From a virus (taxonomy: Duplodnaviria > Heunggongvirae > Uroviricota > Caudoviricetes), in IMG/VR virus record IMGVR_UViG_3300001688_000696: a stretch of 64,000 nt of DNA; one strand, written 5' to 3'. Below the pieces are notes generated by a model, which was not told where the DNA came from, ran no database searches, and worked only from the letters and a program-made list of their open reading frames with translations. How positions within the stretch are numbered: the first letter of the stretch is position 1; every line of letters begins with the position of its first letter. Positions 3,531 through 62,476 of the stretch are shown here, piece by piece. The position numbers and the translations under genes are program-made.

Positions 3531-3630
3531 TTGCAATTTCGTTGCAATATACATGCACTATTGACATATGTAAATAGTGCATGTATAATAAGTACAGCAA
3601 ACAAAAAAAACAGGAAAAACAGGAGGGAAC
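3531..3630 (+). promoter_or_regulatory. promoter/operator cassette copy 2
   Basis: Same architecture as 2411-2507: TTGCAA-N5-TTGCAA, a ~34-bp near-palindrome (acatgcactattgacatatgtaaatagtgcatgt), -35 at 3561-3566, -10 at 3585-3590, and an identical RBS caggagggaac before ATG 3631. Arm substitutions relative to copy 1 preserve the dyad symmetry. Confidence 0.7.
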
Positions 3631-25985: not shown

Positions 25986-26869
25986 CATCGAAACCTGTTG
26001 AAAAAATCCTTGTAGGTGGCGATGCCCGCACGGTGCAGACAGTAAACAAATTTTGTCTCTTGTTGCGGGTTGTCACGATTGCTAGTAGACAGGAAATAGA
26101 GACAGTACCGGCAATTCAAAGCCAATCCCCATTTGATATGTTTTAGGCAGGTCGTGTTATTTTCCTGCAAGGGGCAGCCCATTACAACCCAATCGTTCAG
26201 CGAATCATTGAAGTTGACTGCCCTCTGGTCAGCCATTGATGCCATCGTTACCCAGATTTGTTCTGGCATCGGATTGTTCAACCAGTTCATCATGCGCACC
26301 GGATTGGTGAGGATTTTGGCAAGTTCCTGACGGTCTGGAAAATGTCTAAGACGATGTAAATCGACCTCAATCGCCGGCCAACCGTTTTGCTCAATGATGC
26401 GAAGTTTTTCCCGCCCAACGCGGTGAGTGACGTAGATTTCAAGCAGCAGTGGTTCGCCAGCGGAAAAGATAACGATGTCCGGGACAATCCTACCCAGTCT
26501 GGTTTCCAGCGCCACTTCGTCAATTTTGACTTCGATTTTTTCGTCTTTACGAAAGGTGCGATATACCCGGCGAAAGTAAACGCTGCGACCAGAACGGGTG
26601 AAAAACGATAAAAATTCAATCCCGTATCCCGGAATAAAAATGGTTTTTTGCTGGCTGAGGATTTCTTTCGTCAGAAGGTGCAGTGTGGTTTCGCCAGCCC
26701 ATTCGCATTCCGGCGAATTGAGATGGGCGAAGTGATGGATTTTGATGCTCCCCTTACGGGCGACCAGCGGGGCGTTGCAGGTGGGGCAGATGCACTGACA
26801 GGCAGCTCCGCTTTCGACTTCAGAGATATGAACCAGCTTGCCGTTTTTTAGGCCATAGGGAATTTTCAT
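25967..26869 (-). CDS. CoiA-like competence protein family nuclease
   Basis: N-terminal CICPTCNAPLVARKGSIKIHHFAHL, matching the CoiA signature recalled from memory. The 3' end overlaps the tRNA-Glu 3' end by ~19 nt on the opposite strand. Confidence 0.6.
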   Translation of the reverse strand: MKIPYGLKNGKLVHISEVESGAACQCICPTCNAPLVARKGSIKIHHFAHLNSPECEWAGETTLHLLTKEILSQQKTIFIPGYGIEFLSFFTRSGRSVYFRRVYRTFRKDEKIEVKIDEVALETRLGRIVPDIVIFSAGEPLLLEIYVTHRVGREKLRIIEQNGWPAIEVDLHRLRHFPDRQELAKILTNPVRMMNWLNNPMPEQIWVTMASMADQRAVNFNDSLNDWVVMGCPLQENNTTCLKHIKWGLALNCRYCLYFLSTSNRDNPQQETKFVYCLHRAGIATYKDFFNRFRCLPKRI

Positions 26870-26922
26870 GGGATTGATAGATTAATCATATCGAATGCTA
26901 TTTTAAATGTCAAATAATCCCC

Positions 26923-26950
26923 TTGACAAAACTAGCAAATTGCATATAAT
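26923..26950 (+). promoter_or_regulatory. sigma70 promoter TTGACA-16-TATAAT
   Basis: TTGACA at 26923-28 and TATAAT at 26945-50. Shares the 14-nt ATATAATTATCCAC motif with the promoter region at 62390. Confidence 0.6.
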
Positions 26951-27080
26951 TATCCACAGAACGCAGGACACTTCTACAGTTACTTCTTGCTCTAGCCGAG
27001 CAGATTCGAATCGGACGAATCCTTCTTAAGGTCTTGCGTTCCCCACATCAACAAAAAACGGCCGCCCGGCCGTTTTTTTA
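26951..27080 (+). ncRNA. candidate ~125-nt non-coding leader/sRNA ending in an intrinsic terminator
   Basis: No start codon between the promoter and the terminator (acggcc gccc ggccgt + T7 at 27052-27080). The downstream gene 27157 has no promoter of its own. Confidence 0.35.
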
Positions 27081-27156
27081 TTTTTCCTAGTAGATTTCTT
27101 CAAAGTTGGGAATTTGTGGTATCCGCAGCAGCGGCATCCCGGCTTCTGGAGCAAAC

Positions 27157-27909
27157 ATGATAGAAACGATTGTTGATTTTGAAAATGCCGTGCGTCGGGC
27201 AGTCGCCAGCATGGAAAAATTCAGCCCCGGTTTTCTCGATTTCTTGAAGCAAAAAATCGGTGGAGTGGCTGGGATGGATTTTGATAAGTTCCTGACCTTT
27301 AAGGCTGGAATGGGCTACCGGGATTTCGAAAATATGGAAAACATTGGGAACGCGACCCCACCCATTCCTGTTGTTGCGTTGAACATCATGCTTGGCGACT
27401 GGATGGCATTCCGGGGAATGAGCTATCCGCATATCCCTATCCTTCATGCCGGATACGTCTCGCTCGTCCCGCCACTGCCCTCGTGGGAATCAATTTATCG
27501 GGAGTGTGGCTGGCCTGATAACGATGGCAGGCTGCCAATCCCGAGCAGGCTGCAATTTGAGGTTTTTGCGGCTTCTGACCCTATCATGCCTCTCCACATC
27601 GTTTTCGAGGACGGCGAATTTGATAAGGCGGTTGCTGCGCTGAGAGATGAAACTACCGTCCGCATTGATTTTCGGACGGGTCATGCGGGGCAGGCTTTTC
27701 GTCTGAATAAGACAACTGAAGGGTTGAATGTTGAGGCTCGTTATTGGGACACACAGGTGGTCAACCGGCCTTTAGTTGGGGATATCGCGGAAGACTTCAT
27801 ATACCGCTGGGAAGAAGTCCTCCCGCATGTCCAGCATTGGTTTAAAATTGTGCGTTTTGTTCGGTCGGTGCTGATGGAAATGAGGATGGGGATAGAAGTG
27901 GCTGCCTGA
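27157..27909 (+). CDS. hypothetical protein (250 aa)
   Basis: ATG 27157 with RBS ctggag. The upstream part of track ORF 27106 lacks an RBS. Contains GFLDFLKQK, also found in the 62477 protein. Confidence 0.65.
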   Translation: MIETIVDFENAVRRAVASMEKFSPGFLDFLKQKIGGVAGMDFDKFLTFKAGMGYRDFENMENIGNATPPIPVVALNIMLGDWMAFRGMSYPHIPILHAGYVSLVPPLPSWESIYRECGWPDNDGRLPIPSRLQFEVFAASDPIMPLHIVFEDGEFDKAVAALRDETTVRIDFRTGHAGQAFRLNKTTEGLNVEARYWDTQVVNRPLVGDIAEDFIYRWEEVLPHVQHWFKIVRFVRSVLMEMRMGIEVAA

Positions 27910-27935
27910 TAAGTCCCTAAACACAGACATTTTGC

Positions 27936-27970
27936 GGAGACCAGCCATTTTTTGGCTGGTCTCCGATTTT
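27936..27970. terminator. bidirectional intrinsic terminator
   Basis: ggagaccagcc attttttt ggctggtctcc (11-bp stem). Confidence 0.75.
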
Positions 27971-27978
27971 GTTCTTTG

Positions 27979-28932
27979 TTATTCGCTTATCAGAATAAAT
28001 TTGACATTCCAGGATGCGGTTTTTGTTTCGCTAGACACACCGGCGCTGTTCGTGTAAGTGATTTCTGCCGTCCATATCCCAATAGCATCGGATGGTTTTT
28101 CACCGCCCCGGACACATTTGCCGAGTGTTGTCCCCCAGCATGACCTGTCGCTGTTCACCGGGCATTGACTAATCCATGTCCCGTTACAAGTCAGCCCCAT
28201 ATTCATTTCGATTGTTTTGATGGTTGATTCATTGATTTTGACGGTATAGGTGTTTCCTTCTACCGTCGCAATCGTTTTGATGTCACTTTCTGACAGCGTA
28301 TAGGTGGCAAATTCGCCCTTTGGGGTATTGACTTTTATGGTTAACGTTCCGCCGAACAGGTTCGTAATTTGAATATCAAAATCCGGCAGTTCGGTGTTCG
28401 GGGCAATATCTTTTGAGTTCCAAAAATAATGTACTATCGTTGGATTCGTGACTTCAACTATTGGGGCAGGAATCGGTGTGGGGGTTGGGGGTGGAACAGG
28501 TGTTGGTTCGGGTTCTTCGCCACCATCATCCCCTGATTCATCCCCACCATCACATCCAACAAAGAAAGCCCCACACGAGTGTGGTTCCAAATCTTTCGAT
28601 GGGCCACAGGTAATATTTCCCTGCCTCATCCCCCGTGAACCGCTGTAATAGCATAATGGTTTGGAATATTCAAAATAGCACGGCGTACCTTTCCATCCAC
28701 TAAGTGAGTGGCGATAGCAAGTTCCACTCCCCGCGGAGACCATTTTCCCATTGAAACCGTTCCTATCGCAATTTACCGCCATGTTTCCCTTGCCATTTGT
28801 GCCGCAACTTTCAACCATCGCCGGAACGTATTTGCAAAGGGCATGGGCTATAGTCGGGTGGCTCATCCAGTCAATCGTCAAAAATATCCCGACTATAAAT
28901 ACAGCGATTATTGCCTTTTTGATAGCCTTCAT
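27979..28932 (-). CDS. secreted protein with PT-rich linker and a C-terminal domain shared with 46398..48089
   Basis: Signal peptide MKAIKKAIIAVFIVGIFL. PEPTPVPPPTPTPIPAPIV linker. C-terminal CPVNSDRSCWGTTLG...KPSDAIGIWTAEI. Confidence 0.7.
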   Translation of the reverse strand: MKAIKKAIIAVFIVGIFLTIDWMSHPTIAHALCKYVPAMVESCGTNGKGNMAVNCDRNGFNGKMVSAGSGTCYRHSLSGWKGTPCYFEYSKPLCYYSGSRGMRQGNITCGPSKDLEPHSCGAFFVGCDGGDESGDDGGEEPEPTPVPPPTPTPIPAPIVEVTNPTIVHYFWNSKDIAPNTELPDFDIQITNLFGGTLTIKVNTPKGEFATYTLSESDIKTIATVEGNTYTVKINESTIKTIEMNMGLTCNGTWISQCPVNSDRSCWGTTLGKCVRGGEKPSDAIGIWTAEITYTNSAGVSSETKTASWNVKFILISE

Positions 28933-28965
28933 TGTTGTCCCCCTAGATTGTTGATGATTCGGTTA

Positions 28966-30171
28966 TTAATTGGCTAGTTCACATTCGTTGACAATAAGTT
29001 CTCCTTCTTCAATGTCTACAAGATGGAAAATAAGCTCGCCGGTTGGGAAGAAAATAAAATCTTCAGTCACCTGACCGCCATTCAAAAACGCCAAAATGTT
29101 TTCACCGCCATCGCCTTCGTTCAAAAGAGCGTTCTCCTTTGTGCTACGAACGATGGCGTTCATATACCCTTGCGTGGCGTCTGGGATATTTCCCCTCGTC
29201 ACTCTTTGAATAGATTGCAAGTTGGAGAAATCCGGCTTTCCGTTCTTTAAGCCGATTGTATAGGCAAATCTCACAGTGTGAGGCTTCTGGAAGAACTCAT
29301 CGGCGTTCTCAACCAGGTCTTCATCCTGACGGTAGATGCCGCTCCAGTTATTCAAAAACGATGGCACACTCGTTCCGTCCTGATATTTGACCCCATATGC
29401 CATCCATCCGGTGCGGAAACCACCATTGGTAATGACATACAGGAACTTAACCGCCTTGATTTCGTTCCCCTGGCTGTCCACTACTGTTTTTGTGATTGGA
29501 AGTGTCACAGCATCCACGTAAATGCTGTAGGCATAACCGTCATTGTTGCCAACGACAGCCGAAGTCAACGAATACACAGACGATTTTGCAACTGCCTTGT
29601 AGACCGCTAAACTGGCATCATCCGAGCAACCGTCAGGAGTTGCAAAAGTAATATCCTGGTATTCGCCCTTTTTGATATATGTGCCAAGACTTTCACTGCC
29701 GCCTATCCAGCGGAATTCTACATATTCCCCGACGGGTGTATCTAAAGAATTGTTCTCGTTGACTTTGATAATCGTATAGTAGTTCCGCCCAAGATTGGGG
29801 AATGGGTCAACGTTTTCAAACAGCGGTTCATCCATAACTTGAATGCTTTCACCGCCGTCTGGTGACAGCACAAGGTTTTGTGTTGTCAAGTCAGCAATGA
29901 CGTATTTCCAACCATTGACCACTGGGAATACGTCAACCTTTGGTTTCATCGTCGGAATGAAGGTAAATGTCGGCGCTGGCGTAACAGTCGGCGCGAGAGT
30001 GGCTGTCGGCCGAGGCTCACTGGTCGCATTTTGATGCGAGATTACCTCGATTTTATAGTCTGTTGGCGTTGCTGCCACGACAGGAGTTCCCTGCTTTGCC
30101 TGCCCACATGCCGTTGTCAGCACTAACAGGACAGTCATTGCTAATGTGATTATTCCGCTTTTTCCTTTCAT
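28966..30171 (-). CDS. lipoprotein (lipobox LTTAC), hypothetical
   Basis: Signal peptide + Cys. Confidence 0.75.
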   Translation of the reverse strand: MKGKSGIITLAMTVLLVLTTACGQAKQGTPVVAATPTDYKIEVISHQNATSEPRPTATLAPTVTPAPTFTFIPTMKPKVDVFPVVNGWKYVIADLTTQNLVLSPDGGESIQVMDEPLFENVDPFPNLGRNYYTIIKVNENNSLDTPVGEYVEFRWIGGSESLGTYIKKGEYQDITFATPDGCSDDASLAVYKAVAKSSVYSLTSAVVGNNDGYAYSIYVDAVTLPITKTVVDSQGNEIKAVKFLYVITNGGFRTGWMAYGVKYQDGTSVPSFLNNWSGIYRQDEDLVENADEFFQKPHTVRFAYTIGLKNGKPDFSNLQSIQRVTRGNIPDATQGYMNAIVRSTKENALLNEGDGGENILAFLNGGQVTEDFIFFPTGELIFHLVDIEEGELIVNECELAN

Positions 30172-30422
30172 GGCGTCTCTCCTTATTATACAAATTATAC
30201 TATAAAATATTACTTTTGTAAAGTATGTCCATAATATTTAGATTCAAATAGGCTTTGATTCCAAAAAGTTATCCAATTTTATAACAAAATTTTTGCAATA
30301 CGCACCATCTGTGCGCTTTGTTGGATAGGCTAAAGGTTTTTGGGATGATAATCAAGCATAATGAACTATTTTCGATAGTAAACCGACATATCGCGTCATT
30401 CTTGAAAGAAAGGATGACCAAA

Positions 30423-31067
30423 ATGAACTGTCGAGACAAAACGAAACCGGCGAATAACGAGAACACGAAGGAGGGCGGGGGTTACATCTGCCTGGGTGAT
30501 GTGAAAAAAGATTTCTTTTCCGGCATCCCAGTTGAGCGGCTGGCGCATCTCGAAAATATGTATTACCAGGTTCGCAGCCTAGGTTCGCCGCGCCCCATCT
30601 GCCAATGCTCTCCAGAAGAAAGAACATTAATCAACGAATTTGTGGAAGAAATGAAGCATTTGAAAACCTACATGAAAGGGCGGGAGGCGAACCGAGTAAT
30701 CAAGAACACGGATGGCACGTTGACTATTCAGAATATCCGTCCCAAAAGGTATTGCAGAGCATCCAGCGATGATGACCGGTTGTACAACGCTCACGTGGTG
30801 CCGAACCAGTCTATCCGCGTCCAGATGGTCAGCATATCCGAATTTTTGGAATATGACCGCACCTTCAAGGTTGGCGACCGGGCGGCATACGGTTCTCACA
30901 ACACTATTTATATGGGGAAAATTGTGGGCATTTCTGATAAAACAGTCACCATCCAACCGGATGGGAGCAACAAGAAGATACGCATGAACCTGTGGGAGTT
31001 TTGCTGGCGGAATCATGCTTTCAATCATGATGACTCTGAATGGCGGAACTCAAAATGGATGGATTAG
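30423..31067 (+). CDS. hypothetical protein starting MNCRDKT (shares its first 20 nt with the gene at 41556)
   Basis: RBS aaagg 10 nt upstream of ATG 30423. atgaactgtcgagacaaaac is identical to the start of 40804..41556(-). Confidence 0.6.
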   Translation: MNCRDKTKPANNENTKEGGGYICLGDVKKDFFSGIPVERLAHLENMYYQVRSLGSPRPICQCSPEERTLINEFVEEMKHLKTYMKGREANRVIKNTDGTLTIQNIRPKRYCRASSDDDRLYNAHVVPNQSIRVQMVSISEFLEYDRTFKVGDRAAYGSHNTIYMGKIVGISDKTVTIQPDGSNKKIRMNLWEFCWRNHAFNHDDSEWRNSKWMD

Positions 31068-48098: not shown

Positions 48099-48175
48099 AA
48101 GAAACCGCCCATCATCAAAAGGTGGGCGGTTTCTTTTTCTTATTAAAGAAAAAATGCCCTTGCGGGCATTTTTCG
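48099..48175 (+). terminator. two tandem intrinsic terminators
   Basis: gaaaccgccca...tgggcggtttc + T, then atgccc ttgc gggcat + T. Confidence 0.75.
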
Positions 48176-48177
48176 AG

Positions 48178-48490
48178 ATGTGCGGACTAGGCGCGTCCCC
48201 GCTCCATCTCACGCCGGAATAGCCACGGCTTTCAGGACTCTGCCTCTCGTGGACTTGCCTTCACCGACGTACCGAGCACACCATGGTTCCACCGCACTGT
48301 CCGATAAGGCAGACCTTACGGTCTTCGAAACCTTATCGTAAGGCAAACATCTCCGCGGGGCATCTAACCGGATTTAGTTTGCCATGCCTCCGAGTTCGCG
48401 TAACCGCGCCCTACCTCGGAGTGTCCTCGACCCCACACCCGGCAAGTATCGTAGTTATCGGTGTCCTACGCATTCCGACTTCCGGACTTA
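48178..48490. ncRNA. GC-rich highly structured non-coding region (candidate structured RNA, family unknown)
   Basis: Multiple nested helices, e.g. ccgataagg[c agacc ttac ggtct tcgaaa]ccttatcg, and cctccgag[ttcgcg taac cgcg]...ctcggag. No credible ORF. Strand undetermined. Confidence 0.3.
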
Positions 48491-48792
48491 TCTGTTTGTA
48501 AGGTTCTGAATTGATATATTTATTATACATGCTTTTTTGCGAATTGTCAAGAGCGAAAATGCATTTAATGCCAATTCATTCGAGATTTTTTCTCGAATTG
48601 CGAATGAGATTTCCGCCCGGATTGCCGGTGAAATCGTTTTTTTTAGTGGAATGTGGAAAATGCACTCGGCGGAGCAAAGAAAGCGCCAGGGAAATGGGGA
48701 GCGTCCGTTCATGGTAGCGCCAGCCCATATCACGCGCTGTTGCAAAGGACTAACAGCGCCAAGTTTCGTGCGTGGTTTGGTGACAGCAAAAT

Positions 48793-62243: not shown

Positions 62244-62476
62244 ATATGTTTTTGTCCTTATATGCAAAAAGTTCAAATTGTTCTAAGATTATAGAAATTG
62301 AGAAATATATATTAATTATACTAAAAATTCCGCGCCTGTCAAATCGTTTTGGGAGAAATTCGTCACCTTTTGGTTTAATTAATCTATCTGATATAATTAT
62401 CCACTTACCAATCGGTGATATGATATAATAATTATACTATAATTAAGCTACAGAAAATCTTCAAAAGGAAACTATT

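Follow-up and report, generated by a model that had tools for sequence, protein, structure and literature searches.

A probable stand-alone small RNA gene beside a deletion scar in a large phage-like or plasmid-like element

Positions 26923-27085 of the window, by which we mean the whole 64,000-nt stretch of viral DNA analysed here, probably form an independent small RNA gene whose product most likely acts in trans. A consensus promoter and an intrinsic terminator frame an ORF-less segment of about 125 nt, and both this framing and the fold of the segment exceed what chance would give. From these features we infer that a stable RNA is produced and that it works in trans. An earlier sequence-only reading of the same DNA had placed three interpretations side by side, namely an independent sRNA, a riboswitch and an attenuator; the predicted fold, the Rfam searches and the comparison with a sister strain favour the independent sRNA and speak against the other two.

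A consensus promoter and a bidirectional terminator frame an ORF-less segment

The promoter is of the sigma-70 type and agrees with the consensus at 12 of 12 positions (TTGACA-16-TATAAT, plus strand, 26923-26950, with TTGACA at 26923-26928 and TATAAT at 26945-26950), just as the sequence-only reading had described it. It is the top promoter-like site within 24000-30500, and the window contains at least eight promoters, this one included, that match the consensus perfectly or nearly so. The predicted primary transcript, whose ends are placed from the promoter and the terminator, would run from 26957 to 27082 on the plus strand (~125 nt), and it is antisense to none of the genes in the window. 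Sequence reading found no ATG or GTG between the predicted start (~26957) and the terminator, in agreement with the earlier description of a leader that contains no start codon. The only start codons in the predicted transcript are two TTG, one of which opens a 2-codon frame (TTG-CTC-TAG) and the other an 18-codon frame that lacks an SD and crosses the terminator. The unit thus presents the hallmark of an sRNA gene, a promoter and its own Rho-independent terminator around an ORF-less segment of 50-300 nt.

The terminator (A6-CGGCC-GCCC-GGCCG-T7, 27053-27085) is intrinsic and works, by prediction, on both strands, closing the RNA in the plus direction and also, in the sister strain described below, a minus-strand HNH endonuclease gene. 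Its hairpin at 27053-27078 (AAAAAACGGCC-GCCC-GGCCGTTTTTT, then TATTTTT) has 11 pairs, five of them G-C, with a 4-nt loop and a T7 tail, and corresponds to the GC hairpin with seven T residues that had been noted at 27052-27080. Pair probabilities in the hairpin are 0.92-1.0, with 0.73 for the outermost A-U pair, and its share of the fold energy is about -15 kcal/mol. Because an A-run precedes the hairpin and a T-run follows it, the site scores as a terminator on the minus strand too.

Upstream of the RNA promoter lies the divergent promoter TTGACA-17-TATGAT (minus strand, 26885-26913, 11/12 match) of gene 25967-26869, which encodes a CoiA_N-like nuclease with a CoiA_N domain. The two promoters stand back-to-back, their -35 boxes 9 nt apart. 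At 26916-26918, between these boxes, the window carries a 3-nt insertion (ATA) that none of the nine other contigs spanning this position has.

The predicted RNA has a structured body, a single-stranded linker and a terminator

The whole ~126-nt transcript has a minimum free energy (MFE) of -44.2 kcal/mol, with z = -6.4 when compared with 200 shuffles and z = -5.7 when compared with 500, none of which was as good. Without the terminator, the body (26957-27043) reaches -29.1 kcal/mol and z = -3.9, a value equalled by one of 500 shuffles. On this thermodynamic evidence, the predicted secondary structure is stable beyond chance.

In the predicted fold, the structured body occupies 26959-27041 on the plus strand and consists of a closing helix, P1, and two hairpins. 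P1 pairs 26959-26973 with 27028-27041 over 14 bp (11 bp, an A bulge and 3 bp), with pair probabilities of at least 0.99 in the 11-bp core and 0.60-0.79 in the 3-bp extension, and it begins 2 nt past the predicted start site. The hairpins P2 (26988-27002, pair probabilities 0.84-0.99) and P3 (27003-27021, 0.92-0.95) are accompanied by multiloop strands that are predicted to be unpaired (26974-26987 and 27022-27027). Downstream of the body, an 11-nt linker predicted to be single-stranded, CCCACAUCAAC (27042-27052), runs into the A-run. As modelled, a closing helix next to the predicted start, a linker and a terminator make up the layout of a stable small RNA.

The minus strand of the body folds similarly (-29.8 kcal/mol, z = -2.8). 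Since fold energies are alike on the two strands, the strand call rests on the promoter, the terminator and a G-U pair in P1 (26966/27034) that would become a C-A mismatch if the region were transcribed from the minus strand.

CUUCU(U) motifs begin at three plus-strand positions, 26971, 26983 and 27022 (span 26971-27027); they lie mostly in the unpaired multiloop strands and could pair with SD-like AGAAG or AGGAG sequences. Their clustering, noticed post hoc, is just marginally notable because the pentamer occurs at background frequency in the window.

Several other identities for the segment were considered and rejected. A MITE or other DNA-level inverted repeat is ruled out by the lack of further copies and by the G-U pair in the helix. 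A tRNA or tmRNA is ruled out by ARAGORN, which finds 10 tRNAs elsewhere, and by Rfam, both of which are blank at 26957-27082. A HEARO or IscB omega-RNA is likewise ruled out, with no Rfam match and with an HNH protein in the sister contig L007 that has 272 aa and HNH-type domains only (205-259).

Fold and database searches do not support a riboswitch or attenuator

Whether the segment is a riboswitch or attenuator bears first on known families, and the sequence-only reading had proposed an Rfam scan as a check. At the gathering threshold, the scan of the whole window returned nine tRNAs and nothing else. At E <= 10, the region 26850-27200 gave chance sRNA and miRNA matches only, which were driven by the terminator and fell far below gathering scores, and no riboswitch or leader family appeared among them.

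Constrained folding, in which the 3' arm or the 5' arm of the terminator or the 5' strand or the 3' strand of P1 was blocked, produced no antiterminator. Under each block the remaining modules folded unchanged, and no helix bridged the body and the terminator. In these models body and terminator are structurally independent, with no expression platform. A leader peptide ORF of the kind used in ribosome-mediated attenuation was also absent from the segment, which has no ATG or GTG and holds just the TTG frames of 2 codons and of 18 codons without an SD. Nor is a co-oriented position upstream of the 27157 family conserved, the next gene in the sister haplotype (L006-L010) being a convergent HNH gene. 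The riboswitch or attenuator proposed by the sequence-only reading is therefore not supported, with no Rfam family, no alternative pairing and another layout in the sister haplotype.

A sister haplotype identifies the window layout as a deletion scar

The exact protein encoded by gene 27157 was found on metagenome contigs of up to ~300-400 kb. Five loci (L001-L005) are identical across the region, the RNA included. Over 24041-27147, the window shares 99% identity with a second haplotype (L006-L010), whose RNA differs by a single G-to-A substitution in the P3 loop (L006-L008 and L010). In L006-L010, a minus-strand gene for a 272-aa HNH endonuclease has its stop codon immediately past the RNA terminator; the L007 protein carries an HNH_5 domain at residues 205-259 of 272. 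With this gene abutting the terminator on the opposite strand, the RNA and its neighbour converge on the bidirectional terminator, which serves both.

The HNH gene is intact in the sister strain, and the window retains its 3' remnant on the minus strand (27087-27147), the last ~20 codons ending in EAGMPLLRIPQIPNFEEIY and the stop codon. The remnant begins at about residue 254 and thus keeps the end of the HNH_5 domain. It abuts a deletion junction at 27147/27148, where ~890 bp of L007 (3101-3990) are absent from the window; this lost stretch contains the larger part of the HNH gene as well as the promoter (TTGATT-17-TATAAT) that belongs to the downstream gene. The sister strain keeps that promoter in front of its 27157 homologue (P0003), which begins ~960 bp farther along, and a tandem paralogue (P0002) likewise has its own promoter of the TTGATT-17-TATAAT type, both sites matching the consensus at 10 of 12 positions. 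The free-standing HNH endonuclease gene itself (L007 3040-3990) is thus a polymorphic feature of these elements, carried by one haplotype and deleted in the other.

Gene 27157 (27157-27909, plus strand) is an ORFan of 250 aa with a GGAG SD that lies 77 nt beyond the RNA terminator and ends in an intrinsic terminator of its own (27935-27965, plus strand). The sequence-only reading described it as lacking a promoter in the window strain and depended on there being none between the RNA terminator and the gene; on both counts it proved correct, as no plus-strand promoter was found in 27060-27160, where the best candidate matches 7 of 12 positions. The 27157 protein is a chimera, resembling P0003 over residues 1 to ~110 and P0002 from ~112 to the end, with the crossover near residues PSWE(S/A)IYREC. 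Overall, the two paralogues (L007 4001-6449) are 64% and 75% identical to it, and in the sister strain a minus-strand gene of 210 aa, lost in the window, stands between them. An AlphaFold model of the 27157 protein has a pLDDT of 55, too poor for a fold search.

Because the 3' scar of the HNH gene is kept and the 27157 protein is chimeric, the window layout is the derived state, and the ~890-bp deletion is recent. Gene 27157 is promoter-less in the window because this deletion removed most of the HNH gene together with the promoter of 27157 itself. The promoter-less gene behind a terminator is a deletion scar rather than a conserved design for regulation. The ancestral order, still seen in the sister strain, was the RNA, the convergent HNH gene, a separate promoter and the 27157 homologue, and 27157 would not be the RNA's target by design; in the window lineage, the ~890-bp deletion took the HNH gene and the promoter, and two tandem paralogues fused. 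With its promoter lost, 27157 can be transcribed by terminator leakage from the RNA promoter, or not at all. A cis effect on 27157 through readthrough in the window strain, which arises because 27157 has in practice nothing but the RNA promoter ahead of it, is a by-product.

Relatives and potential targets of the RNA

The RNA is known from the two near-identical haplotypes only, one loop base apart. Searches of the window with blastn-short and nhmmer found no paralogue, and a 24-mer scan of viral contigs gave no match to the RNA. A 20-mer scan of GTDB genome contigs returned seven chance matches, in coding DNA, and a motif-pattern scan of metagenome contigs returned 74 matches, none of them RNA-like, in a scan that also missed the source element itself. 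Viral contigs with the same tRNA-Glu sequence, at 23 loci, match in the tRNA only. BLAST against phages and plasmids matched neither the RNA nor the window, and IMG/VR held no relatives of the element. None of these collections contained a diverged homologue that could show covariation in the predicted fold.

Searches with the proteins were similar in outcome, as the 27157, CoiA-like and 401-aa proteins have no intermediate-distance relatives among 5.8 billion protein clusters. Distant CoiA_N homologues do exist, in unrelated contexts, and so no link between the RNA and the nuclease can be claimed.

A scan for RNA duplexes across 60 start regions of the window yielded no outlying target. For gene 27157, the 9-nt complementarity between the RNA and the SD (26987-26995 with 27146-27154) and an 8-nt match to codons 5-7 do not exceed chance level.

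A 14-mer links the RNA promoter to that of gene 62477

The sequence-only reading had pointed out that the RNA promoter shares a stretch with the promoter of gene 62477, and this is so. The shared 14-mer, ATATAATTATCCAC, covers the -10 box and the discriminator/start region of the RNA promoter (26944-26957, plus strand) and recurs exactly at 62391-62404, within the TTGGTT-16-TATAAT promoter of 62477 (62370-62404, plus strand). These are its only two occurrences in the window, and the promoters are otherwise unrelated. The sharing is probably not due to chance; by our own arithmetic, the rough p for any two of ~32 promoter-like sites sharing 8 extra bases is ~0.01. At both promoters the 14-mer could be a common regulatory or start-site element. 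What it ties to 62477 is the RNA gene, not 27157.

The peptide GFLDFLK does occur in the proteins of both 27157 and 62477, as had been noticed, and it is not kept in the paralogue P0002; the match is probably chance or merely local. The two genes are ruled out as paralogues by an hhalign probability of 2.5%. Because the proteins are not homologous, the idea of a co-regulated pair of 27157 and 62477 is weak, and with GFLDFLK absent from P0002 and the 14-mer belonging to the RNA promoter, that part of the sequence-only reading is not supported.

A trans-acting small RNA and its alternatives

In the explanation that we consider probable, the consensus promoter would start transcription at ~26957, two bases ahead of the 14-bp closing helix, and a compact three-helix body, an 11-nt single-stranded linker and a strong bidirectional terminator would lead to the release of a ~125-nt product. 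This product would most likely act in trans, either as a regulator or by binding a protein, within a large mobile element that is rich in ORFans and also carries tRNA arrays behind promoters of the same kind. Among known systems, those closest to it are the trans-acting sRNAs of phages and mobile elements, such as lambda OOP and the prophage RNAs DicF and IsrK, which are like this RNA in having their own strong promoter and no ORF. The likeness to this class extends to a length of ~100-130 nt, to a structured body combined with a single-stranded stretch and a U-tailed Rho-independent terminator, and to location on a mobile element. For virulent and giant phages, transcriptome surveys have been published (PMC10914365, PMC11512511). 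Unlike the sRNAs of this class, the RNA described here has no sequence or covariance-model similarity to described families and is not antisense in the window.

It is unlikely that the unit is functionless, with an orphan consensus promoter firing into the bidirectional terminator of the HNH gene and giving a by-product transcript whose fold is fortuitous. Such a unit would fit with the lack of covariation and of conservation past one strain cluster, with the position of the bidirectional terminator exactly at the HNH stop codon in L007, with the way in which such terminators punctuate the whole element, and with the like fold energy of the two strands. However, the 12/12 promoter serves no other product, the body folds with a z of -3.9 that only 1/500 shuffles match and places a 14-bp helix 2 nt after the predicted start, and the RNA is, apart from the one loop base, unchanged in both haplotypes despite the rearranged neighbouring DNA. 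A cis leader, be it a riboswitch, a protein-dependent attenuator or another form of conditional readthrough, in which the body senses a signal and tunes termination at 27053-27078 for 27157, seems very unlikely. Terminating riboswitches and attenuators have the same promoter, structured leader-like RNA, terminator and co-oriented gene, the last being a match in the window strain only, but here there is no known aptamer, no terminator/antiterminator switch and no conserved gene linkage. Neither an Rfam family nor, under any tested constraint, an antiterminator pairing was found; the sister haplotype has the RNA facing a convergent HNH gene and both 27157 paralogues behind promoters of their own, and the layout of the window is a deletion scar. 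The geometry of the window nevertheless fits a leader, with a strong promoter, a structured ORF-less RNA, a terminator and, 77 nt on, a promoter-less gene with a GGAG SD, and factor-dependent antitermination would need no alternative RNA fold.

In phage lambda, the constitutive strong promoter PR' gives rise to a short 6S transcript terminated at tR', which is subject to antitermination by Q. The window is similar in that a strong promoter and a short terminated RNA stand upstream of a gene with no promoter of its own, in a geometry like that of PR'-tR', and a 127-aa protein (24779-25162) matches a PHROG annotated as a Q-like anti-termination protein (E = 2.6e-7). A lambdoid late-promoter or put-like module, in which this Q-like protein or the nascent RNA makes RNA polymerase terminator-resistant, is extremely improbable all the same. 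The PHROG match is generic, being limited to residues 88-121, a CxxC zinc-finger stretch for which the DnaJ CXXCXGXG finger is a match as well, and the gene for the protein lies 1.8 kb off, with a tRNA array and an opposite-strand gene in between. Unlike the lambda case, there is no late operon here, as a single gene follows downstream before the orientation flips, and the arrangement is missing in the sister strain, which has the convergent HNH gene instead. Distinctly unlikely as a package is a joint reading in which the RNA would found a class of structured RNAs not described so far, from a very sparsely sampled lineage of huge phage-like elements (~300-400 kb), the CUUCU(U) motifs serve as a decoy or antisense for AGAAG/AGGAG or as the site of a pyrimidine-binding protein, the RNA and 62477 form a small ATATAATTATCCAC regulon, and the unit at 48550-48152 (see below) shows that there are several orphan non-coding RNAs.

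If it is expressed, the small RNA that we favour would be an orphan structured addition to the non-coding RNAs of huge phage-like elements, which are poorly charted. RNA genes of this kind are already known, and the finding opens no new mechanism. For genome scanning, the lesson is that a recent deletion can place a gene without a promoter behind a promoter, a structured RNA and a terminator, and that comparison of near-identical strains suffices to distinguish stand-alone RNA genes from true leaders.

The host element and the surroundings of the RNA gene

The window has a GC content of ~47% and encodes mostly ORFans, with very few Pfam or PHROG matches. Four N6_N4 DNA methyltransferase genes lie in its 64 kb, and other matches are to a helicase, an integrase, a GGDEF protein and an SPFH protein. 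The element is large (about 300-400 kb), phage-like or plasmid-like and ORFan-rich, it carries tRNA arrays, and its lineage is essentially unsampled. Nearly all of the genes in the window end in an intrinsic terminator, which is often bidirectional, and TTGACA-17-TATAAT consensus promoters are frequent, with two consensus or near-consensus ones preceding tRNA arrays. One array (21502-22062, promoter at 21230) holds two Phe (GAA) and four Ser tRNAs (GGA, GCU, UGA and CGA), and the other (25682-25986, promoter at 25425) holds four Glu tRNAs, three with UUC and one with CUC. The arrays are sorted by amino acid, and their isoacceptor redundancy is unusual for a mobile element.

The RNA gene lies ~1 kb from a tRNA array and beside a strain-variable free-standing endonuclease gene, a place that recalls the long-unexplained small stable RNAs of phage T4. 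The T4 RNAs called species I and II are cut from a tRNA precursor transcript, and we know of no function for them. The two cases are alike in combining a small non-tRNA stable-RNA gene by a tRNA array (at ~1 kb here) with a polymorphic endonuclease gene (HNH here). They differ in that the T4 RNAs arise by tRNA-precursor processing whereas the RNA gene in the window has its own promoter and terminator, and no sequence relationship is expected. In the tRNA gene region of T4, the free-standing homing endonuclease gene is segB, which is present or absent among close relatives (PMC2330249).

A second ORF-less unit occupies 48152-48550 on the minus strand, within a 750-nt intergenic gap. It has a perfect TTGACA-17-TATAAT promoter (-35 box at 48550) and a terminator at 48171-48152, between which ~370 nt of comparatively GC-rich sequence hold no convincing ORF. 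With an MFE of -136.9 kcal/mol, z = -2.1 and no Rfam match at E <= 1, this unit is a candidate for a large non-coding RNA.

Elsewhere in the window, a cassette of divergent back-to-back promoters is present in two copies, at 2439-2452 and 3561-3574. The plus-strand promoter, TTGACA-17-TATAAT, leads into an A-rich start region, and the minus-strand promoter, TTGACA or TTTACA-17-TATATT, leads into GCAACGAAATTGCAAT. The two copies indicate a duplicated intergenic control region.
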